Source: Felixounavirus LF82P9. Taken from it: 64,000 bases of DNA. Below are positions 1-62,470 of the stretch, piece after piece. Each line of letters opens with the position of its first letter. Position 1 is the first letter of the stretch. Position numbers and translations under genes: made by a program. Below the pieces are notes generated by a model. It saw only the letters and a program-made list of their open reading frames with translations. It was not told where the DNA came from and searched no databases. The DNA is taken from sequence record OZ035757.1; one strand, 5' to 3'.

Positions 1-458
1 CGCTAGCTGTTAGTAACTTACCATCACACACCCATAGTTTCTCTGCTACCACTTCATCTTTTGATTATGGTACGAAGAACACTAATAGTACTGGTGGTCA
101 TACTCACTCTGTAAGTGGTACAACAAGTGCTGCTGGTAACCACGCCCACCACTTAGGTCTGCTATTGGTTAATGGTGGTGATGCTCAGTATGGTTACACA
201 ACTGTTAGCAACAGCAAGACAAGAACTCTTGACTGGCTTGACAGAAAAGACAATAAATTCCCTAACACTAACACAACTGGTAACCATACACATACATGGT
301 CTGGTACTACAAGCGGTGCTGGTGACCATTCCCACTCTGTAGGTATTGGTGCTCACAGCCACACAGTTAGTGGTAATACTGGTAGTACAGGTTCTGGTTC
401 AGCATTTAGTGTTACTAACCAGTTCTACAAGTTAATGGCTTGGGTAAGAACTGCTTAA
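1..458 (+). CDS. tail fibre protein, C-terminal part (5' end outside window)
   Basis: Frame open from nt 3 to stop at 458; six G-x-H-x-H-(S/T) repeats (SHTHS, GHTHS, NHAHH, NHTHT, DHSHS, AHSHT) as in phage fibre-tip HxH repeats. Confidence 0.55.
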
Positions 459-537
459 TCCCTTGTTGACTGATTGTTAAGATGGTGTTAATATTCTTTA
501 TGGGTATTCTCACCATCTTGGCTGATGAGGTGATTAA

Positions 538-732
538 ATGCCTACAATCCTAGCAATTCTTCTAAAAAATCTAGGTAGCTTCTTCTGGAAACTCATTTTA
601 TCCCTTCTAAGTGAATACATGATTGAGAAAGTGTTCTTTAAGCTTGCAAGATACCTTGCGAGTAAAACAGACACGCCTATTGATGATGAGTTCGTAGATA
701 ACTTAGAAAAAGCTTTTAAGGGGGAGAAATAA
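538..732 (+). CDS. small hydrophobic protein
   Basis: ORF track; hydrophobic N-terminal half (ILAILLKNLGSFFWKLILSLL); follows tail-fibre gene. Confidence 0.35.
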   Translation: MPTILAILLKNLGSFFWKLILSLLSEYMIEKVFFKLARYLASKTDTPIDDEFVDNLEKAFKGEK

Positions 733-1104
733 ATGAAGTGGCTAGAGGAAGCTTTTAAAAATAATATTGGTGCAATTGTAGTTGGTATTTTTAGTGTTAT
801 TGGGATGTATACCACTATGCAAGTTTCAAGTGGTAAGCAAGAAGTGTCTGTCACAACAAAGTTACAGCAGCTAGATAATTATTCCAAAAGTAACTATTCA
901 GCTATTCGTGATTTACAGTCTGACATGAGACTGATTCAGCTAGGGATGGAGAACCAGAAAGTTCAGTTAGAGAATGTTAAGGGTGAAAACGCAAAACTTA
1001 CCAAAACTCTTGATAAATTCTCTGACAGTGTGAACAATCTGGCTCAATCAGTATCAGCCCTCCAAGCTATTACTGAAAAGAACACAAAGAATACTGAAAA
1101 ATAA
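733..1104 (+). CDS. membrane-anchored coiled-coil protein (possible lysis or fibre-associated function)
   Basis: N-terminal TM segment (IGAIVVGIFSVIGMY) then heptad-rich region; start abuts upstream stop. Confidence 0.45.
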   Translation: MKWLEEAFKNNIGAIVVGIFSVIGMYTTMQVSSGKQEVSVTTKLQQLDNYSKSNYSAIRDLQSDMRLIQLGMENQKVQLENVKGENAKLTKTLDKFSDSVNNLAQSVSALQAITEKNTKNTEK

Positions 1105-1109
1105 AGTTT

Positions 1110-1137
1110 AAGGCTCCTTTTTACGGGAGCCTTTTTT
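1110..1137 (+). terminator. rho-independent terminator
   Basis: Stem aaggctcc/ggagcctt with 8-nt loop followed by TTTTTT; lies between convergent genes. Confidence 0.6.
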
Positions 1138-1140
1138 GTT

Positions 1141-2040
1141 TTACTTACCTACTGACAGAGGTGCTTCAATCTTCCCTGCATGTTGGTAGTTGTTAATTCC
1201 ACCAATAAAGTCACTTGCAGTAAGATGTTTTAAGTCACTTAAAGTGTTAAGCTGTACACCAATCTCAAAAGTAGGTGCATGAAACTCTTCATTGTTCATC
1301 AGTTCATAGACCTGCTTCATATGGTTATGATAAATCTGAGTATCTCCAAAGACACCTATCAAGTATCGTGGAGTGTATCCAGTCATCTTGCAAAGAACTT
1401 CCAGAATAAAACCATAAGATGCAATGTTAAACGGAAGTCCTAAAAAGGTGTCTACAGAACGTTGATACCATTGTAAGTCAACTTCACCTTCGTTAGTGAT
1501 ATAAATCTGAAACAGAACATGACAAGGTGCTAAAGCCATTGAGTTAGCTGCAATATCTGCTGCATTCCAAGCATTAACAAGCATGTAACGGTCTGTGATA
1601 TCACCTTTCATCTTCGTTACTAAGGTCTCTAACTGGTCTACAACACAACCATTATGACCTTCAAAGTTTCTCCACTGAACCCCGTAGATTCTCCCACCTG
1701 CATCCTCTAACCAATCTTGTTCAGAAGAATAGTTAGAGCTTAACCAGCGTTTAAAATCATCTGACCAGATAGTCCAGCGTTCCCCATCATTTTCACCCCA
1801 AGTACGGTAACGAAGTTCACCAAGCTTATTCTCACCGTTCAGGAACCATAAAGCTTCCCCAATAACTTGCCTTGTAAACACCTGTTTAGATGTTAAGAGT
1901 GGGAAACCAGTACGCATATCAAAACGAAACTGTGGTGGAGCAAATGCAGAGATAACATCTCCAGTTCTTGTAGTACGCAGTTCACCAACGGATAAAACAT
2001 GGTTCAGGATATTTTTGTAACTTGTATCTGCTTGTGACAT
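1141..2040 (-). CDS. thyA: thymidylate synthase
   Basis: 299 aa; ThyA-like N-terminus and length; adjacent to DHFR. Confidence 0.9.
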   Translation of the reverse strand: MSQADTSYKNILNHVLSVGELRTTRTGDVISAFAPPQFRFDMRTGFPLLTSKQVFTRQVIGEALWFLNGENKLGELRYRTWGENDGERWTIWSDDFKRWLSSNYSSEQDWLEDAGGRIYGVQWRNFEGHNGCVVDQLETLVTKMKGDITDRYMLVNAWNAADIAANSMALAPCHVLFQIYITNEGEVDLQWYQRSVDTFLGLPFNIASYGFILEVLCKMTGYTPRYLIGVFGDTQIYHNHMKQVYELMNNEEFHAPTFEIGVQLNTLSDLKHLTASDFIGGINNYQHAGKIEAPLSVGK

Positions 2041-2844: not shown

Positions 2845-3360
2845 TTATTTAACCTCAAAAACTGGCTCAAGAACCAATATAAAGTCTACACAGTCATCTT
2901 CTTCATCCAGAATACCATCAAAGTTCTTAGGAACGAAGTCGAAGAGGCTCATAACAAAACAGTCAGAAGTGACCTTGATAGTTCCTCCCATGTTCTCTAC
3001 AGTCAACACTGTACGACTTTCTTTTACCTCCCTCAGAAGATTACCCACAAAGTCATCTAAGAAGTACTTCATCAGTGACTTAAAACCTTTAGGGTAATCT
3101 GTACCAGAGTATGTTTCAATCTGAGGCACAAGCTTAACATTTATACTAGTCTTTGTTAAGAACGTGTTAGAGAACATGCTATCAGGTAACTTACAAACAG
3201 TCTTTCCAGTATCTTCATGTTCAATCTCAACAAAACCAGCTTCGTCGCCACATGTGACTATTTTAAAAGATGCTTCATTATCACCCTGTGAAGCCATAAA
3301 CTTTTTAAGCATCGTTTTAAGGAAATCTGCATGAGCATCTTGTAAGTAGATATCAATCAT
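2845..3360 (-). CDS. hypothetical protein
   Basis: ORF track; tandem packing on minus strand; no recognisable motif. Confidence 0.5.
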   Translation of the reverse strand: MIDIYLQDAHADFLKTMLKKFMASQGDNEASFKIVTCGDEAGFVEIEHEDTGKTVCKLPDSMFSNTFLTKTSINVKLVPQIETYSGTDYPKGFKSLMKYFLDDFVGNLLREVKESRTVLTVENMGGTIKVTSDCFVMSLFDFVPKNFDGILDEEDDCVDFILVLEPVFEVK

Positions 3361-12180: not shown

Positions 12181-12210
12181 ACATTACTGCAAAAAATTAT
12201 AAAAAGCAAG

Positions 12211-12240
12211 TTGACAATGCACTTGACAAGGTGTTAATCT
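12211..12240 (+). promoter_or_regulatory. sigma70-like early promoter (tandem TTGACA boxes)
   Basis: gTTGACAatgcacTTGACAAGGTG then TGtTAATCT; same 29-nt module at 56156; in divergent intergenic region. Confidence 0.4.
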
Positions 12241-12407
12241 TTGCGAAGTGGGTTTTTACTTAAAAGGTTACTTAACAGTTTAACTATACAGATACTTTAA
12301 AACTCTTAAAAGATTATTTAATAGCTTTTAAAAAGCTTTAAAGTATAACGTATAGAATACGTTAAGATAAAAGATTAAAACTTAATAGTTACTTAAAAGA
12401 GGCTTAC

Positions 12408-38046: not shown

Positions 38047-38069
38047 AGGCTGCTTCGGCGGCCTTTTTT
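38047..38069 (+). terminator. rho-independent terminator
   Basis: Stem ggctgc/gcggcc with UUCG loop then TTTTTT. Confidence 0.6.
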
Positions 38070-38130
38070 ATTTGTATTTTGTGCAGAGTGCTGTATAATT
38101 GTTGTCACGATAAACTAAACAGGAGAACCA

Positions 38131-40988: not shown

Positions 40989-41190
40989 AAAGACACGGAA
41001 ACTCGTCCGGTCAGCAGTATTCATTGGAAGAAATGAAGTCATCCCGTTTACAGCAAACGATGTGATAGCCTACAGGAAAAACTTAGTATTTAGTGATTGC
41101 TTGCGTGGCTTCATCTCCCAACCATTGGAAGACTTTAAAAGCCGTTGTGGTAAAGGTATCATCATTCAAGAGGCAATTATCAATGGCTGA
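40963..41190 (+). CDS. hypothetical protein
   Basis: ORF track. Confidence 0.35.
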   Translation: MRVILARDKKTRKLVRSAVFIGRNEVIPFTANDVIAYRKNLVFSDCLRGFISQPLEDFKSRCGKGIIIQEAIING

Positions 41191-41383
41191 CTTCTGCAAA
41201 GACTGTTCTATAGAAATGTTTGGACGTGATACAGGTGACTTAAAAGGTCTTATCACTGAAGATGACTTTAAAGCTGGTTATGCAATGCCAGTAATCTGTG
41301 AAGGTTGTGGATGTATCTGGGTAGACCATGAGGGGCAACGTGTAAAACCTTCAGAAGATAAAGAATCTTGGGAGAGATGTTAA
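41183..41383 (+). CDS. small zinc-ribbon protein
   Basis: ORF 41093-41383 trimmed to internal Met; CKDC ... CEGCGC. Confidence 0.35.
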   Translation: MADFCKDCSIEMFGRDTGDLKGLITEDDFKAGYAMPVICEGCGCIWVDHEGQRVKPSEDKESWERC

Positions 41384-42169
41384 ATGGGTATTGTAAAAAT
41401 AATCAATGGTGATATCTTTGCCGCATTTGATAAAGGTAAGTTTGACATCATCGGTCACGGTTGCAACTGTATGAATTTAATGGGTGCAGGTATCGCTGAC
41501 AAGATTTCTAAACTTTACCCAAAAGCATATGAAACCGATACAGAAGTTTATCTATATGCAGGTGGTATAGGACACAAACCCTGTGAAAATTTACTGGGTA
41601 ATTTCTCTGTAGCGCGTTTAAAACAAGGTCGTATAGCTAACCTTTACACTCAGCTTAAGACTGGTAAAGATGCCCGATACAGTGCTTTAGAGTCATCTTT
41701 GAAACAGCTTAACAGATACTGTGAAGTCAATCAGTTGAAGAAAGTCGGGTTACCTATGATTGGTGCAGGTATCGGTGGGCTAGACCCTCAAGCCGTCACA
41801 GTTATCATTAATCAGGTGATGAAGAGTGTAGATGTTTATCTATATGTCTATGAAGGAGAGATGTACCACAAGTTACGCTCAGGTTGGAAGAACTACTGTG
41901 AACCAGAATACTTTGCAGGTGTAGTTGTGTTCACGGATAATGCAGTTACCCTCTTCAGACGAAGAAAAGGTAAGATACATCAAAGTAACCCTCCGGTTGA
42001 AAAGATGTCTCTAAGTAACGCTCTAGTTACCCACCTGTCGAAGAGCAATCACAGGATTGCAGTAACATTTGGCAGTGATGCAGATACTTACATCTATGCA
42101 AGAACTGATGAGGATATCGAGACAGTTTTCTCTTCGCCAGAAGTTACCTTCTTAGACGCAAAGAGCTAA
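41384..42169 (+). CDS. macro-domain-like protein (ADP-ribose binding/processing)
   Basis: N-terminal IVKIINGDIF...DIIGHGCNCMNLMGAGIA resembles macro-domain glycine-rich motif; C-terminal ~100 aa unassigned. Confidence 0.5.
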   Translation: MGIVKIINGDIFAAFDKGKFDIIGHGCNCMNLMGAGIADKISKLYPKAYETDTEVYLYAGGIGHKPCENLLGNFSVARLKQGRIANLYTQLKTGKDARYSALESSLKQLNRYCEVNQLKKVGLPMIGAGIGGLDPQAVTVIINQVMKSVDVYLYVYEGEMYHKLRSGWKNYCEPEYFAGVVVFTDNAVTLFRRRKGKIHQSNPPVEKMSLSNALVTHLSKSNHRIAVTFGSDADTYIYARTDEDIETVFSSPEVTFLDAKS

Positions 42170-42241
42170 GAAACTTCGTAGGGTATTCACAATAGACTAA
42201 GCCTTTCTTATCTGGTAAATTTTTCAGGTAAGGAGGGCTTT

Positions 42242-42421
42242 TTCATTTCAGAATTGTGCAGGTATATCTCTGTAGAGAAATCTGTAGAGAGAATTTTGAA
42301 CTCCAAAGAGAAAATTCATTTTCAAACTGTGCAGGTAATCTCCAAAGAGCTTTTTCATTTTCAAAACGTGCAGACCCCGCTCAGGTCGGGCAAGAAAAAT
42401 CATTTTAGAATTGTGCAGGTA
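42242..42421. repeat. four direct repeats of ttcatttTcaaaNtgtgcaggta plus tandem atctgtagaga
   Basis: Copies ending near 42265, 42337, 42373, 42421; two copies embedded in ~40-bp tandem unit ctccaaagag-N-ttcattttcaaa-N-gtgcag. Confidence 0.6.
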
Positions 42422-42440
42422 GGTTTTTATAGACAGCCAG

Positions 42441-42476
42441 CCCAACCCCTCTCCCCCTCTTACTCCCCCTCTCCCC
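42441..42476. repeat. C-tract array (G-quadruplex-prone on minus strand)
   Basis: CCC, CCCC, CCCCC, CCCCC, CCCC runs with 2-6 nt spacers in an AT-rich genome. Confidence 0.5.
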
Positions 42477-42597
42477 AAAAGTCAATAGAAAAATTTGTAG
42501 CGGATTGAAAAATAATTCTTGATTTGCGTTCTGTTTTGTGGTAGTCGTGCGCACCCGTTTCATTACAGTTTTGCCAAAAATATTTTTAAAATTTTTA

Positions 42598-42626
42598 TTG
42601 ACTCTTTGAACGTGGTTATCTAATAT
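42598..42626 (+). promoter_or_regulatory. sigma70-like promoter
   Basis: TTGACT, 17-nt spacer, TAATAT; heads the small-ORF array. Confidence 0.55.
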
Positions 42627-42636
42627 TTACATCAAC

Positions 42637-42657
42637 GGGGAGGGAATGACCTTCCCC
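42637..42657 (+). promoter_or_regulatory. conserved intercistronic hairpin, family A (copy 1)
   Basis: ggggagggAATGAccttcccc followed by actaaataaa and RBS context taaactggagattcaaaaATG; copies at 45252, 45849, 46179. Confidence 0.55.
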
Positions 42658-42689
42658 ACTAAATAAAATCCTAAACTGGAGATTCAAAA

Positions 42690-42878
42690 ATGGCATCAAG
42701 AAAAATTAAAGTTGGCGATGAGGTTAACATTAAGCACGAATACTCTTACAAAATGCTAACTATACGCTCTTATAAGGTTTATCAGGTGGAAGCTATCCAC
42801 AAAGATAATACTTTTTCCTTAAAAGGGTATAGCGAACGTTTCCCTGCTGAACTCTTTGAGAAATGGAGCGCGAAATAA
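42690..42878 (+). CDS. small hypothetical protein
   Basis: ORF track; own hairpin-RBS cassette. Confidence 0.45.
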   Translation: MASRKIKVGDEVNIKHEYSYKMLTIRSYKVYQVEAIHKDNTFSLKGYSERFPAELFEKWSAK

Positions 42879-43125: not shown

Positions 43126-43172
43126 AGATAAAGAGCTTTACTAAATTAACCCTTAAACTAGGAGATTCAAAA

Positions 43173-43556
43173 ATGGCTTATCGTGCACCGAAATTCATCA
43201 ACAAAGACAACTTCCGCAACGCACTGGAGAAGTCACTTGATGAAAAATTTAACGGCAAATTGATTGTTGTTCACGCATTCAATTTTAAGTATGATATTAA
43301 CGGGAATAAAATCAACCATTACACGGCAACCATGTTAGATGGTACACTATCAAGTGAAAAAGCTGTACTGAATGCACTTGCAGGACGTGGTAAAAACCTG
43401 ATAAGATGCGATAAGAGACGTTATCAGGGTGGCGCATATGGTTATGATGATGCTGTTTATCATCTTGAAAATATGGGCTATTCAGTGGAAAAAGCTGGAG
43501 TATCTCAAATAATCGGCAGCGATGGTTATGTAACTATCTTCAAAATTAACAAATAA
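43173..43556 (+). CDS. hypothetical protein
   Basis: ORF track; cassette gene. Confidence 0.5.
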   Translation: MAYRAPKFINKDNFRNALEKSLDEKFNGKLIVVHAFNFKYDINGNKINHYTATMLDGTLSSEKAVLNALAGRGKNLIRCDKRRYQGGAYGYDDAVYHLENMGYSVEKAGVSQIIGSDGYVTIFKINK

Positions 43557-43944: not shown

Positions 43945-43988
43945 AGATAAAGAGCTTTACTACTAAGTCCTAAACTGGAGATTCAAAA

Positions 43989-44501
43989 ATGAAAACTGTA
44001 GACGCTACCTTTGAAGTTGTAAAAGAAAAATTCACTATTATTTATGAAGCTGTCAATTGCTTTGAAGCAAGCCATAATCTTGATAATTGGGAGTTTACAG
44101 ACACCCATCAGGGCGGCGTGACTATTAAAAACCCCAACTGTCAGCGTAATGATTTTAAATATGCAATCCCTTTGCATTACAGCCTTAAACAGCTTTCAAG
44201 TGACTATGCAAAACAAGGCCGGGAAAATCCATCAAAAGAGGCTTACACAAGCTTACAGAAAGAATTAGAAAGAGATTTAGAGGCTTCAGAATACAACCTT
44301 GCCGCGAAAGTTGTCGATGCAAATGGTCAAACAATTTTAGACAGTTTTTATATTGGCTACGCTTTTGATTGGTGCTATAGTGACGGCGATGATTTAGAGG
44401 ATAGACTAAAAGAAGAGGTGAACAATTCAGACGCAGAATCTGAAGTATTAGAACGTTTGGAATCACTAAAAGATTCAGTGATGAATATCTTTAAGAACTA
44501 A
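43989..44501 (+). CDS. hypothetical protein
   Basis: ORF track; cassette gene. Confidence 0.5.
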   Translation: MKTVDATFEVVKEKFTIIYEAVNCFEASHNLDNWEFTDTHQGGVTIKNPNCQRNDFKYAIPLHYSLKQLSSDYAKQGRENPSKEAYTSLQKELERDLEASEYNLAAKVVDANGQTILDSFYIGYAFDWCYSDGDDLEDRLKEEVNNSDAESEVLERLESLKDSVMNIFKN

Positions 44502-45216: not shown

Positions 45217-45251
45217 CACTGGTTTTTAGATAGATTAAATTACACATCAAC

Positions 45252-45272
45252 GGGGAGGGAATGACCTTCCCC
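45252..45272 (+). promoter_or_regulatory. family A hairpin (copy 2)
   Basis: Identical ggggagggaatgaccttcccc 53 nt upstream of ATG. Confidence 0.55.
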
Positions 45273-45304
45273 ACTAAATAAAGTCCTAAACTGGAGATTC
45301 TAAA

Positions 45305-45835
45305 ATGAACAAATTTCAAGCTATCAACTTCATTCGTTCAAATGCTGTAATGTCTAAGCCTGTAAAAGATACATATGAATTTCGTTGTAATGGGGTACAC
45401 TTTGCAACCATCACTAAGTCAGAAAACGGGGCTTATTATGTACATCGTCGTAATGTTGCAACCGTTGTAGTCTCTCACTTTATGCAAGCTGTAGCGGAAT
45501 TATTACCGTTATTCTTAGAGATTTACTTAGATGAGTGTAAAAACGTTCACAACCACGTTAAAAACCTTTTAAACGGTTATAAAATGGCTTATGAACGTTC
45601 TATCAAGTCACTAAACAAGTTTTACAATGCACCTGCAAATACTGTTTCAATGGCTTATGATGTAAACGGTGAGTTAGTTAGTCTCTTTAAAGTGGAAGAA
45701 ATTAAACTGTATAATCTACGTCCTAGTGGTTACTCTAAGACTCTTGGTGAAGGTTTAACGTTCAATATCAAGAACTTAGAAAAAACTTTAAAAGATATTG
45801 AAAAAGATATTGACGAGACAATAAAAAGTCTGTAA
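45305..45835 (+). CDS. hypothetical protein
   Basis: ORF track; cassette gene. Confidence 0.5.
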   Translation: MNKFQAINFIRSNAVMSKPVKDTYEFRCNGVHFATITKSENGAYYVHRRNVATVVVSHFMQAVAELLPLFLEIYLDECKNVHNHVKNLLNGYKMAYERSIKSLNKFYNAPANTVSMAYDVNGELVSLFKVEEIKLYNLRPSGYSKTLGEGLTFNIKNLEKTLKDIEKDIDETIKSL

Positions 45836-45848
45836 ATTGTCAATCAAC

Positions 45849-45869
45849 GGGGAGGGAATGACCTTCCCC
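45849..45869 (+). promoter_or_regulatory. family A hairpin (copy 3)
   Basis: Identical hairpin 53 nt upstream of ATG. Confidence 0.55.
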
Positions 45870-45901
45870 ACTAAATAAAGTCCTAAACTGGAGTTATCAA
45901 G

Positions 45902-46165: not shown

Positions 46166-46178
46166 ATTACTAATCAAC

Positions 46179-46197
46179 GGGAGGCGATAACCTCCCC
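46179..46197 (+). promoter_or_regulatory. family A hairpin (variant copy 4)
   Basis: gggagg-cgataa-cctccc then actaaataaaa. Confidence 0.45.
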
Positions 46198-46231
46198 ACT
46201 AAATAAAACCCTTAAACTAGGAGATTCAAAA

Positions 46232-46480
46232 ATGGCAACTATCCGCGCTACTGTCAATGCCTATGGCTGTTATACTCTGGACGTTAAATTCGATATTGGT
46301 GGAACTGATGAGTGTTTTTCATTAGTGAAGACAGTTATCAAACAAGTTATTCCAGATTATAACCCTACTGATGACTTCTGGAAAGATGCTGTAAAAGAGG
46401 CATTAAACGACGAGCATCACTATCATTACTGGGGTGACTTGATTGTTTCCCTGTACTACAATAAACAAGGTTACAACTAA
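46232..46480 (+). CDS. small hypothetical protein
   Basis: ORF track; last gene of plus-strand block. Confidence 0.45.
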   Translation: MATIRATVNAYGCYTLDVKFDIGGTDECFSLVKTVIKQVIPDYNPTDDFWKDAVKEALNDEHHYHYWGDLIVSLYYNKQGYN

Positions 46481-46490
46481 TCGACGCAAC

Positions 46491-46543
46491 GGGGCTAAAT
46501 AGCCCCAGATACCTCAACAGCCCCTGTTTAAAGGGGCTTTTTT
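46491..46543 (+). terminator. tandem-hairpin rho-independent terminator
   Basis: ggggct-aaat-agcccc, then agcccct/aggggct followed by TTTTTT. Confidence 0.6.
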
Positions 46544-46545
46544 AC

Positions 46546-48162
46546 GTCTATTGAATCCTTATACAATCCCTTTCCAGAATCTTATCAGACCTTAAAAGCA
46601 ATAACTCTATAGTCTACTCTATAACCTCTTATCAAATCAACTTAAATAAAAGCCAATAACCCCCAGAAAGGGGATGGCCCATTTAAACGCTCTATAAAGC
46701 TCTATAACAGCCTTATCAACCTAACTTAAGGGATTGCATTAACCAACCTTAAAAAGCTCTTTACAGGGCTTTATAGAGACTTAAAAGAATCTTATAAGGG
46801 TGTAAGCTTTATTATCTCATTAGTATTCTTGTGAATATCTAAACAACCCCTTGATAGTCACTAAAAAGTATGTTATAGGGGCTTTAAAGTTACTTTGAAG
46901 TAGCTTAAAAGTTACGTAAAAGAGGCTATAAAGTTACGTAAATGCTAGCCCCCTTAACATTTTCTTAACAATTTCTTAACAAACCCTACATAGTTATGCT
47001 TTTAAGGCACTTGTTAGCAACTTGTTAGCCCCTTGTTAAATCTCTGTTACAACCATGTAAAAGCCTTGTAAGAACCTTTGACATAGCCTTAAAAGCTCCT
47101 GTAAAGCCCTATAAAGAGGTATCTGTACAGTTGGGGGATAGATACTAGGAAGAGGCTTAAAAGAGCTTATAAAGAGCTATAGAGAGCTTTTAAGAGGTAT
47201 GTTTAAGGAATCACTAAGAAAGCAAAGGGAACGATAAGAAAAGAGTAGTGACCATGTTAATAGCTTGTTAAAAAGATTAAACACTTGTTAGAAACTTATT
47301 AATTATCTTAACAAAATAACTCTTCAAAATTAACTTGTTAGCTCTTGTTAGTCATCTGTTAAGATTCTGTAAAGCCTATGTATCAACTGTTAAGAAACTG
47401 TTAAGCTCTTGTTAGTTCTGTTAAGAATCTGTTAAGACCTTTGAAGAGTTGTTAAGAAGATGTGAGAACTGTTAAGAGATTGTTAAGGATATTTTAAAAT
47501 TTTGCAAAGTACTTGTAAGGGAGCTGTTAAGGGCTACCAAGCAGATATACATCTTCTACAGATATTTTTCAGTTCCTTCAGAGACCCTAAAAAATAACTT
47601 GATAGTCCTATTTTATAAAAATTTTAAGATTCTGAATAATTACCTATACAGCCTTTTAAAAATACAGGTAATAACAGGCTTATAAGATACCTTGTTAGTA
47701 CCGTGTTAGACCTTGTGAGATAAGGTCTGTAAAGATATTCCTGTTAAGTTTGTTAAAACAGTCTATATAGAGGCTTAGTAATACCTAGTGAACACCTATA
47801 GAGAGTGTCATAGCTAACCTAGAGATTAAGAGGTGTATAGGAGCTTCTAAGAGGATGTAGAGAGATGGTTAAGGTGATTGTATAGGTTGTTAAGAGGGCT
47901 TGTTAGAAGAGTGTTTAGATGGCTATTTAGAAGGGCTATACAGAGGGCTATTAAGACCACTAGATAGTTACTAAGATACTATATAGTACTATATAACTAT
48001 ATAGAGAGTAAGATTAAGAAGGTTGTTAAGAAGGATAGATATTTTATTCACATATGATGGTGACCCAGAGGTTGGGACAACCGATAAAATTTTATAAAAA
48101 ATATAAATTTCGTAAATTTTACTCAATAAAAAGCCCCCAATTAAGGAGGCTCTTAAGATATT
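46546..48162. repeat. ORF-free repeat array (candidate protein-binding array, origin or packaging region)
   Basis: No ORF of 60 aa or more on either strand; many copies of (C)TGTTA(A)G in both orientations, phased at ~10-12 bp around 47385-47530; second family CTATAAAG. Confidence 0.6.
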
Positions 48163-61670: not shown

Positions 61671-62224
61671 GATACTTAAAATATGCTTCATGGATTTTCT
61701 TAGCTTTGCTAGAACCACTTGCAGCAATACTAGCAGTTATCTTAGCACCTTTTGTAGTTCCATTCTACAGTGAGAAGAAAGGACACTTACCTTTCGGGTT
61801 CAGATGGATGGAGACATATGACAACCCAATTGATGGTGATGAAGGTCACGTTAAAAGATGGGCTAATATCAGATGGATTGGTAAACTAGGTGTCTACATG
61901 CAAAGAGTCGGATGGCTCTGGAGAAACAAAGCTTATAACTTCTCTTACCATGTATTAGGAAGAGATGTAAAAGATGTTACTAAGTGGAAAGGTAATATCA
62001 ACGTAAGTTCTGACCCTGAAGATAATCAGACAGGTTATCTCCTAATGTGGAACAGTAATGCTTGGGGATTATTCGCTTTTATCCCATCAATTAAAATCTT
62101 TGGTAAACAATTTTACTGGAGAATTTATATTGGATGGAAACTAAAAAGTGTTGTCCCAGAAGAAAGAGCATTCTCAAGGGAAAGAGTTATGTTGGCATTC
62201 TTTATTCATCCACTGAGAAAGTAA
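61667..62224 (+). CDS. Trp-rich membrane protein inside tRNA array
   Basis: N-terminal TM (WIFLALLEPLAAILAVILAPFVV); ATGA overlap with upstream ORF. Confidence 0.45.
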   Translation: MRYLKYASWIFLALLEPLAAILAVILAPFVVPFYSEKKGHLPFGFRWMETYDNPIDGDEGHVKRWANIRWIGKLGVYMQRVGWLWRNKAYNFSYHVLGRDVKDVTKWKGNINVSSDPEDNQTGYLLMWNSNAWGLFAFIPSIKIFGKQFYWRIYIGWKLKSVVPEERAFSRERVMLAFFIHPLRK

Positions 62225-62232
62225 AGATTTAA

Positions 62233-62308
62233 AGGGGATTAGTTTACAAGGTTAAAACCTCGGTCTTTGAAATCGAAGAAGTTGGTTCAATTCCAACATC
62301 CCCCGCCA
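62233..62308 (+). tRNA. tRNA-Gln(TTG)
   Basis: Anticodon loop ctTTGaa; T-loop TTCAATT; A1-C72 mismatch; CCA encoded. Confidence 0.75.
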
Positions 62309-62310
62309 AT

Positions 62311-62389
62311 GCTCCATTACTCCAATTGGCAGAGAGGCCAGACTTAAAATCTGTGTTATGTATCGGTTCGAATCCGATATGGAGTACCA
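62311..62389 (+). tRNA. tRNA with anticodon TAA (Leu by anticodon), short variable arm
   Basis: Anticodon loop ctTAAaa; D-arm paralogous to the CAA tRNA; A73; CCA encoded. Confidence 0.55.
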
Positions 62390-62394
62390 AATTT

Positions 62395-62470
62395 AGCGGC
62401 ATAGCATAACTGGCAATGCAGCAGTCTCTGAAGCTGTCTTATTAAGGTTCAAATCCTTATGCCGCTGCCA
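62395..62470 (+). tRNA. tRNA-Gln(CTG)
   Basis: Anticodon loop ctCTGaa; T-loop TTCAAAT; CCA encoded. Confidence 0.8.

Follow-up and report, generated by a model that had tools for sequence, protein, structure and literature searches.

A candidate iteron-type cis-element with an exchangeable G/C-run tract in the early region of Felix O1-like phages

Iteron origins such as R6K gamma, F ori2/incC, P1 incC/incA and lambda ori carry 3–9 direct, asymmetric repeats of ~17–22 bp. In iteron replicons, the conserved positions of the repeat lie about one helical turn apart, the neighboring DNA is A/T-rich, and a site for rep autoregulation is present. T4-type phages are said to carry promoter-early-stem-loop (PeSL) cassettes, reportedly described by Arbiol et al. 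in Genome Biol Evol in 2010. In phage T4 itself, the iterons of oriE are conserved in the syntenic regions of relatives and initiator binding is suspected, with no proven role in replication (PMC3016281). At the PLE origin, the iterons are bound by RepA, and both the iterons and the origin have been mapped (PMC7145576). For the Ounavirinae, no origin, temporal regulator or description of the array analyzed here was found in the searchable literature, and the direct repeats listed in the Felix O1 paper are others than the four described below.

The window (the whole stretch of 64,000 nucleotides that was analyzed) derives from a Felix O1-like myovirus of the Ounavirinae, genus Felixounavirus. 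It contains a non-coding gap, put at ~500 bp in the original prediction and found to span 520 bp, that is 99.8% identical to Enterobacteria phage KhF2 and is matched by 288 phage records. The gap lies within an early, plus-strand region of small genes, with a tRNA cluster further on at 58–63.6 kb, and the genes downstream of the array differ among relatives. The gap, its neighbors and its features are as follows.

41384–42169: macro-domain ('Tk.4/phosphatase') gene, upstream neighbor of the gap
42170–42689: non-coding gap, 520 bp, with a terminator, four direct repeats, a TCTGTAGAGA pair, a C tract and a sigma-70 promoter
42199–42245, plus strand: intrinsic terminator that closes the early operon upstream, with an 8-nt loop on a 17-pair stem and a T tract (terminator scan)
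42239–42265, plus strand: iteron r1, TTTTTCATTTCAGAATTGTGCAGGTAT, 34.0 bits, kept in all groups
42269–42278 and 42281–42290, plus strand: tandem TCTGTAGAGA pair, 12 bp apart
42312–42338, plus strand: iteron r2, AAATTCATTTTCAAACTGTGCAGGTAA, 34.4 bits
42351–42377, plus strand: iteron r3, TTTTTCATTTTCAAAACGTGCAGACCC, 30.7 bits, both half-sites intact, 3' flank diverged
42396–42422, plus strand: iteron r4, AAAATCATTTTAGAATTGTGCAGGTAG, 32.6 bits, orthologue of copy 3 of the Erwinia phages
42441–42476, C on the plus and G on the minus strand: polypyrimidine C tract, five C-runs (3, 4, 5, 5, 4)
42444–42478: perfect polypyrimidine mirror repeat, 16+16 arms around a 3-nt centre, TTA
42477–42526: near-invariant 50-bp block AAAAGTCAATAGAAAAATTTGTAGCGGATTGAAAAATAATTCTTGATTTG, common to Felixounavirus and Mooglevirus (alignment)
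42598–42626, plus strand: sigma-70-type early promoter TTGACT-17-TAATAT, with an A/T-rich stretch just upstream
42629–42690, plus strand: 5'UTR of the small ORF, with a G/C hairpin (42637–42657) and a ribosome-binding site
42690–42878: 62-aa ORF, a small early gene and downstream neighbor of the gap

The array is a transcription-free island: its start falls within the T tract of a strong terminator, and ~180 bp separate its end from the early promoter that comes next. The terminator is annotated as rho-independent in the wV8, KhF2 and ASO1A records, its stem pairing is preserved through G-C to G-U changes across 10 genomes, and its T tract doubles as the first 5 nt of r1. At the other end, the promoter predicted at 42598 is a match to the consensus; its TTGAC and TA.TAT are invariant in 16 genomes, and ASO1A carries a promoter annotation there. 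The 5'UTR that follows is part of a dispersed promoter/leader cassette, separate from the iteron array, with further copies at 45244–45305 (97%), 45843–45893 (98%) and 46173–46232 (87%), and the wV8 record annotates copies of this cassette as DR_1 to DR_9. Like PeSL, the downstream promoter and 5'UTR hairpin form a dispersed repeat that flanks small variable early genes at mosaic breakpoints. This likeness is limited to 42598–42690; the iterons lie outside the cassette and occur as an array at one locus only. Upstream of the promoter, the near-invariant block at 42477–42526 contains GAAAAAT twice, 21 bp apart, and in relatives an inverted pair, TCAAGA/TCTTGA.

All four of the direct repeats that had been predicted are present. 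Scored with a position matrix trained on genomes other than this one, they reach 30.7–34.4 bits, whereas the next best match on either strand of the 88-kb KhF2 genome reaches 11.8. The consensus given in the original prediction has three matches at ≤3 mismatches, against 0.01 expected, and the degenerate third copy was recovered by a repeat search and also by the other-genome matrix. The repeat unit is 26 bp (coordinates are given for 27-mers) and follows the pattern W5-TCATTTY-N6-GTGCA-GGTA. The half-sites TCATTT and GTGCA are invariant across lineages, and the AT-rich spacer of 6–7 nt between them is variable; over four to five lineages, information content is 1.9–2.0 bits in the half-sites and 0.6–1.6 bits in the spacer. 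The W5 part is either T5 or A4T, and the 3' flank reads GGTA in enterobacterial phages versus TAGR in Erwinia phages. Two repeats, r2 and r3, lie in a tandem unit of 39 bp (34-nt units, 82% identical), close to the ~40 bp first proposed, and the tandem pair of short boxes noticed at the same time corresponds to the two copies of TCTGTAGAGA. The first of these begins 9 nt past the GTGCAG of r1, and r4 is likewise followed after 9 nt by TATAGACA (42428–42435); the T(G/A)TAGAGA found at this distance from both r1 and r4 is a decayed -10-like box. Boxes related to TCTGTAGAGA are also seen in Mooglevirus (TGTAGAAC and CTGGACAGA) and, as an inverted repeat TATCTGTA..TACAGATA, in Si3-type phages.

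The array was observed in Felixounavirus, Mooglevirus (Mordin and Sf14), Kolesnikvirus (Erwinia phages phiEa21-4 and Coenus) and L028, an 88-kb metagenomic phage, always after the macro-domain gene and in every case ~180–230 bp upstream of an early promoter. Mooglevirus is ~72% identical over the gap, and the syntenic proteins of L028 are only 29–44% identical to those of the source phage. Copy number (3–5) and position are retained among these relatives. The start-to-start spacings in the three genera are 73/39/45, 75/41/45 and 37/37/39 bp, and the iteron spacing of 37–45 bp shows no helical phasing that holds across genera. Nucleotide identity to phiEa21-4 is 0.65 for the array versus 0.62 for the adjacent macro-domain gene (protein 34%), and identity to Mordin is 0.81 versus 0.74. 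By these values the array is conserved at least as much as the adjacent gene, which points to purifying selection. When metagenomes were scanned for iteron pairs, most hits were unrelated chance matches, and after matrix filtering only Ounavirinae-like contigs were left.

The repeats are not a product of chance. Because they occupy a single locus, are conserved across genera and consist of bipartite half-sites, they look like a functional cis-element. Since the two invariant half-sites lie about one helical turn apart, with a free spacer and with A/T strand flips tolerated, the element appears to be DNA that is read by a protein. Judged from the sequence, this half-site pattern is the signature to be expected of a sequence-specific protein contacting two successive major grooves, and we consider it probable that the repeats are functional and bind a protein.

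Several other readings of the repeats were rejected. Coding repeats are ruled out: r2–r4 are in frame in this genome, but the spacings elsewhere differ by non-multiples of 3. Since no reading frame can be conserved, the ORFs placed here by annotators cannot be conserved genes, and those annotated in the gap of Felix O1, wV8, Mordin and Sf14 differ in strand and frame among records. A CRISPR-like mini-array would be expected to have repeats of 28–37 bp, unique spacers of ~32 bp and likeness to a host CRISPR repeat; the period here is 37–45 bp, the inter-repeat sequence is conserved, and no match to a CRISPR repeat model was found. A global phage promoter motif was also discarded, as the 88-kb genome holds no more copies apart from one weak site.

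Among described systems, the array resembles T4 oriE in that direct repeats are clustered in the genome of a lytic myovirus, are syntenically conserved and sit beside early transcription signals. Unlike those of oriE, the repeats are 26 bp, bipartite, spaced 37–75 bp apart and present in four copies, and they share no sequence similarity with the T4 iterons; no repE-like gene was recognized near the array, and the source phage has a primase-helicase and DNA polymerase set and not the T4 replisome. The direct, asymmetric repeats and their conserved halves about one turn apart are shared with iteron origins, the A/T-rich neighboring region may be a further parallel, and a lone related site at the promoter that drives the upstream operon (see below) is reminiscent of rep autoregulation. 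In contrast to iteron origins, the iterons are not contiguous and are not phased at 11 or 22 bp, no Rep/O-like initiator is recognized, and DnaA and IHF sites are lacking; the genome is linear with terminal repeats. From its sequence, the array can be classed as an iteron-type cis-element that is new to the searchable literature.

A protein bound to the array could act on transcription. A possible fifth site was found at 38.1 kb, next to a promoter element.

38064–38087, plus strand: solitary TTTTTTATTTGTATTTTGTGCAGA, a possible iteron-like site that comes right behind the rIIB terminator
38092–38099, plus strand: extended -10 element TGTATAAT, starting 5 nt past the GTGCAG of the solitary site (read by eye)

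The solitary site came to light when metagenome and viral contigs were filtered with the matrix, and it scores 14.6 bits here and 24.3 bits in Mooglevirus. Its halves are conserved and its centre is variable in both Felixounavirus and Mooglevirus, and another weak match lies 73 bp downstream, the same spacing as between r1 and r2. On our reading of the sequence, the TGTATAAT promoter drives the operon that has its 3' end at the array, and the iteron-binding protein could also regulate this 38.1-kb promoter, either in a Rep-like manner or as a plain repressor or activator. The weight of the solitary site is limited because no such site is present in the first 20 kb of phiEa21-4.

These observations bear on the possibility of an operator array, in which a phage or host DNA-binding protein would occupy the four sites and the solitary site and would time or insulate the early transcription units, whether by repressing the 38.1-kb promoter, by blocking read-through of the terminator or by acting on the promoter at 42598. 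This reading is tentative, and it stands close behind that of a replication origin or control locus taken up below. The solitary site covers the -35/spacer region of the extended -10 promoter and is conserved in two genera, a location that suits a transcription factor as well as a replication protein. The array itself lies between two early transcription units at a similar distance from an early promoter in each group, and the phage encodes an XRE-type HTH protein. However, XRE-type regulators usually bind palindromes, whereas the iterons are asymmetric. In addition, >170 bp lie between the sites of the array and the -35 of the promoter at 42598, the same promoter cassette occurs elsewhere in the genome without iterons, the terminator T tract accounts for half of the similarity of the solitary site, and phiEa21-4 keeps the array although its first 20 kb lack the solitary site.

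The resemblance between the two loci can also be read historically, since the array may have evolved by duplication of a terminator/promoter junction. On such a view, the array would be mainly a by-product, a tandemly duplicated terminator/promoter/gene-start module that now provides only homology for module shuffling and has no dedicated binder. Consistent with this, r1 and its flank are paralogous to the rIIB terminator/promoter junction, the junction has a second weak match at the same 73-bp distance, and TGTAGAGA and TGTATAGG, two decayed -10-like boxes, occupy the position of TGTATAAT. Homology breakpoints and cassette swaps also occur at or beside the repeats. Among relatives, breakpoints are found at r3, immediately ahead of the promoter and within the hairpin of the 5'UTR; that of ECML-1, Si3 and VpaE1_ev035 falls at window position 42355, within r3, and in Si3/ECML-1-type phages a different 3' end of the macro gene is joined inside the array, leaving three iterons. 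Nevertheless, the half-sites are invariant in every copy and the spacer is free, though the neighboring proteins are only 34–44% identical, and copy number and position are retained. We therefore regard a mere by-product as improbable. The recombination hotspot suggested by the original prediction fares somewhat differently. Given the breakpoints, the Si3/ECML-1 junction inside the array, the exchanges of the tract described next and the dispersed promoter/hairpin cassette, a hotspot is plausible, as a side effect.

Downstream of r4, the five C-runs of 3–5 nt noted originally are present at 42441–42476. Quadruplex or i-motif sequences are expected to have at least four runs of at least three G (or C), loops of ≤7 nt and a G4Hunter score above ~1.5. 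The proposed G4 scoring gave a 25-nt G4Hunter value of -2.36, larger in absolute terms than anywhere else in the 64 kb and beyond the maximum of 1.96 in 100 Markov simulations; only two loci in the window reach an absolute value of 1.5, and the tract is the only canonical four-run pattern. By sequence it thus qualifies for a G-quadruplex on the minus strand and an i-motif on the plus strand, and GGGGAGAGGGGGAGTAAGAGGGGGAGAGGGG is the corresponding oligonucleotide for the quadruplex question. H-DNA requires a homopurine-homopyrimidine mirror repeat. The mirror repeat at 42444–42478 is the longest in the window (the longest arms in 30 simulations were 12 nt) and is 86% pyrimidine over 35 nt, with a single purine in its 31-nt core, which fits the H-DNA motif definition of arms of at least ~10 nt and a short spacer. 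The 16+16 mirror repeat and the five C-runs therefore place the tract, on sequence alone, within both definitions.

Unlike a fixed H-DNA or G4 element, however, the tract is an exchangeable allele. Across ~203 Felixounavirus records, it is found in 62 and is replaced in 141 by an unrelated segment of ~55 bp in the same slot, GGTGGGTGCAGGTGGGGATGTCGCCATTTCTCACAAGGCTACCACATCTGAAAAG, with the iterons and the downstream block intact; the exchange is bounded exactly by r4 and the next conserved block. The replacement is mildly G-rich on the opposite strand (G4Hunter +1.5 to +1.7) and has only two-tetrad potential. In Mooglevirus a shorter C tract scores -1.9 to -2.2, and the mirror core TCCCCTC-TTA-CTCCCCT is kept in Mordin, while the Kolesnikvirus tract, also shorter, scores -1.6 and has no canonical quadruplex motif. 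Conservation in relatives, the check named in the original prediction, is therefore mixed: a C tract is kept in Mooglevirus and, more weakly, in Kolesnikvirus, but is exchanged in most Felixounavirus records. With intact repeats but no tract in about two-thirds of Felixounavirus records, the tract is dispensable for the role of the array. Under the refuting condition set in the original prediction it is not essential, and its casting there as the central feature is not upheld. Even so, a G/C-run tract with an absolute G4Hunter value of at least 1.5 stands beside the last iteron in all four named groups, on either strand, and not in L028. As the tracts of the named groups and the replacement allele both reach 1.5, and only two loci in 64 kb do so, a strand-agnostic preference for G/C-run DNA beside the last iteron is possible. 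The locus is a subfamily-conserved, DNA-level cis-element made of an iteron core and an exchangeable G/C-run accessory.

The tract could in principle be the functional unit itself, acting as a G4, i-motif or H-DNA switch on the downstream promoter or as a replication pause, with the repeats incidental. The extremes in G4Hunter score and mirror-repeat length, the C-rich tracts of the two related genera and the G-run-rich replacement would suit such a role, as would the several public assemblies that break or show adapter junctions exactly there. With 141 of ~203 records lacking it, a replacement limited to two tetrads on the opposite strand, a non-canonical version in the Erwinia phages and a distance of 120 bp from the promoter -35, this is the least probable of the readings considered, and we think it very doubtful.

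The assembly breaks have another bearing. Andreotti starts and LMP34 ends in the tract, as do contigs L015 and L023 at their breaks, and the VpaE1_ev035 junction there consists of a Nextera mosaic end flanked by a 14-bp duplication; L023 also carries a Nextera adapter. Such a concentration of assembly ends and adapter junctions suggests that the tract is awkward for library preparation or assembly. It is no physical genome end. The idea of a terminus was prompted by Andreotti, LMP34, TH10 and two metagenome contigs that start or end in the tract, and the Andreotti end proved to be an inverted-duplication artefact. A genome terminus or pac site was rejected: the identical 542-bp ends of UAB_Phi87 map to 61892–62433, ~19.5 kb away. 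For that phage, a direct terminal repeat (DTR) of 608 bp has been mapped experimentally (PMC4837284). A Rho-dependent rut site, which calls for a transcript segment conserved as C-rich and G-poor, was likewise discarded: only the C-rich allele has this character, and on that strand the more common allele is rich in G.

A non-coding RNA transcribed from either strand would offer a different account, with the repeats as protein- or RNA-binding modules and the C- or G-rich stretch as a seed or ribosome-binding region. By eye in the alignment, a minus-strand -35-like TTGACT by the tract is invariant, with TAAGAG, TAATAG or TAGCCT 17 bp downstream. The tract contains CCUCC-like (anti-Shine-Dalgarno-like) motifs, and several annotators have placed minus-strand ORFs and ribosome-binding sites here. 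However, the candidate -10 has no critical final T in the C-tract allele, and the promoter scan detected no promoter inside the array on either strand. An Rfam search of the gap gave no match with an E value below 0.4. Folding over 290 nt gave a weak consensus structure of -22 kcal/mol, and RNAalifold detected no covariation on either strand outside the terminator stem; the compensatory pairs numbered 0 and 2 on the two strands, none of them in a convincing helix. As no Rfam family, own promoter or covarying structure was found, a non-coding RNA gene was rejected. The W5 flips between T5 and A4T and the switch in tract polarity between alleles argue, in addition, for constraint at the DNA level. 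An RNA is accordingly a highly improbable explanation.

With the protein-binding DNA repeats preferred, we consider what they might serve. The reading we tentatively favor, by analogy with T4 oriE, plasmid iterons and the PLE origin, is that of a replication origin or a replication-control locus; this is possible, although well short of probable. A phage early protein would load cooperatively on the iterons, and the resulting nucleoprotein complex would serve as the origin or control site, a role proposed for the oriE iterons of T4 and demonstrated for iteron origins of plasmids and satellites. Easily opened DNA would come from the non-B-DNA tract alongside and from the promoter region, which is A/T-rich and strongly transcribed. 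In line with this, the operon that has its 3' end at the array possesses a promoter overlapped by the solitary iteron-like site, which resembles rep autoregulation in iteron replicons. At a scan length of 50 bp, the segment 42579–42628 ranks among the least stable 0.25%; at 100 bp it ranks only among the least stable 2.8%. A more specific version, in which the iterons and the G/C-run tract together form the, or a, Felix O1-like replication origin or control locus, is rather unlikely. In this combined version, the early protein would assemble on the iterons and a G4, i-motif or triplex would open or mark the neighboring duplex; a non-B structure able to form on either strand would explain why two unrelated G-run alleles are tolerated.

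Against an origin, no initiator or DNA-binding gene is recognizable beside the array. Pfam, PHROGs and PDB sequence searches of the neighboring proteins recognized no DNA-binding or Rep family. The gap contains no DnaA, IHF, Fis, CRP or GATC sites, with only single-mismatch matches at chance level and no GATC, and resemblances to Fur, PhoB and sigma-54 sites in the gap are poor by eye. The least stable DNA of the window lies at ~12.3 kb and 47–48 kb, at strand-switch and GC-skew turning points. There, at 46.5–48.1 kb, 1.6 kb of non-coding DNA is packed with CTGTTAAG/CTTGTTAG motifs at a period of ~11 bp, and on classical criteria this region is the better origin candidate. L028, however, shows a related architecture that counts in favor of an origin at the iterons: right behind them lies an A/T-rich array of TTAACA, and the two repeat systems may for this reason be related. 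The TTAACA of L028 is the other-strand form of the 46.5–48.1 kb motif of the source phage.

Typing, biocontrol and therapy directed at Salmonella and E. coli make wide use of Felix O1-like phages. At present, the region of the array is filled with spurious ORFs by genome annotators, and the tract seems to break short-read assemblies, a practical concern when these genomes are finished. The array offers a bait for its binding protein and a candidate origin or control site for engineering, and the two tract alleles amount to a natural allele-swap experiment on non-B DNA in a phage genome. If the combined reading of iterons and tract were true, the Ounavirinae would gain their first defined origin, and the locus would exemplify, in a bacterial virus, an iteron origin that is assisted by DNA structure.

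ORFs have been annotated across the iteron array in public records (window 42248-42508, with equivalents in relatives' records L001, L005, L007 and L010), and these calls are mutually inconsistent. They include ORF31-34 of Felix O1, gp013 of wV8, gp014 of Mordin and gp118 of Sf14. Since strand and frame disagree between these four records, the ORFs are most likely spurious calls on a non-coding element.

Public assemblies also break off precisely at or within the C tract, or show artefacts there:

Assembly breaks and artefacts at the C tract
L052 (VpaE1_ev035, LR699048.1), ~1016-1031
L004 (Andreotti, MN850610.1), 3267-3289
L023, contig end
L015, contig end
MK482690.1, record end

In VpaE1_ev035, a Nextera mosaic-end junction (CTGTCTCTAGAGACAG) with a flanking 14-bp duplication was observed at the tract, one metagenome contig breaking there ends in adapter sequence, and the Andreotti record carries an inverted-duplication artefact at its end. 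The two ends of the UAB_Phi87 record, 542 bp each and identical, correspond to window 61892-62433, inside the tRNA cluster. A 608-bp DTR is reported to have been mapped experimentally in that phage (PMC4837284), and 61892-62433 is probably the site of the physical genome ends in this phage type.

Several further features were identified in the window and in a metagenomic relative:

Further features
12190-12400: very A/T-rich stretch at a strand switch, with the DNA polymerase gene nearby
38064-38099 (including the -10): solitary iteron-like site TTTTTTATTTGTATTTTGTGCAGA, directly 3' of the rIIB terminator
41183-41383: 66-aa zinc-ribbon-like protein (CxxC...CxxCxC), phrog_2210 (function unknown)
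42629-42690: early promoter and 5'UTR hairpin/RBS cassette, a dispersed repeat
43140-43173, 43965-43989, 45244-45305, 45843-45893, 46173-46232: further cassette copies
46540-48140: 1.6-kb non-coding region flanked by convergent gene blocks
L028 (IMGVR_UViG_3300045988_063805, 88-kb metagenomic phage), 440-1200, minus strand: array region

The solitary site lies 5 nt upstream of an extended -10 (TGTATAAT) and is kept in Mooglevirus (24.3 bits); a second, weak match is located 73 bp downstream, where the next gene encodes its signal peptide. The gene for the 66-aa protein runs up to the macro-domain gene's start codon, and the Erwinia phage has no such CxxC protein at the corresponding position. 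Cassette copies, annotated as DR_1 to DR_9 in wV8, flank small variable ORFs and coincide with mosaic breakpoints, resembling the promoter-early-stem-loop cassettes of T4-type phages.

Among the phages of the collection, L028 has no close isolate. Between its syntenic early genes and those of this phage, identity is 29-44%, and its short macro protein (148 aa) is preceded by a Dam-type methyltransferase. Its array region has approximately five iterons and lacks a C tract; directly 3' of these iterons lies a TTAACA array, in which the motif of the 46540-48140 region recurs.

Within 46540-48140, CTGTTAAG, CTTGTTAG and CTTAACA motifs are densely repeated with a period of ~10-11 bp (20 per kb, versus an average of 0.94 per kb). 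The least stable DNA of the window and the cumulative GC-skew maximum both fall here, and the region resembles a large protein-coating array, a candidate for either origin or centromere-like site. The cumulative GC-skew minimum is observed at 12190-12400, together with CTTAAAAG-type repeats and a near-palindrome with 27-nt arms (12292-12346). This stretch is a further origin-like spot, of the classical kind.
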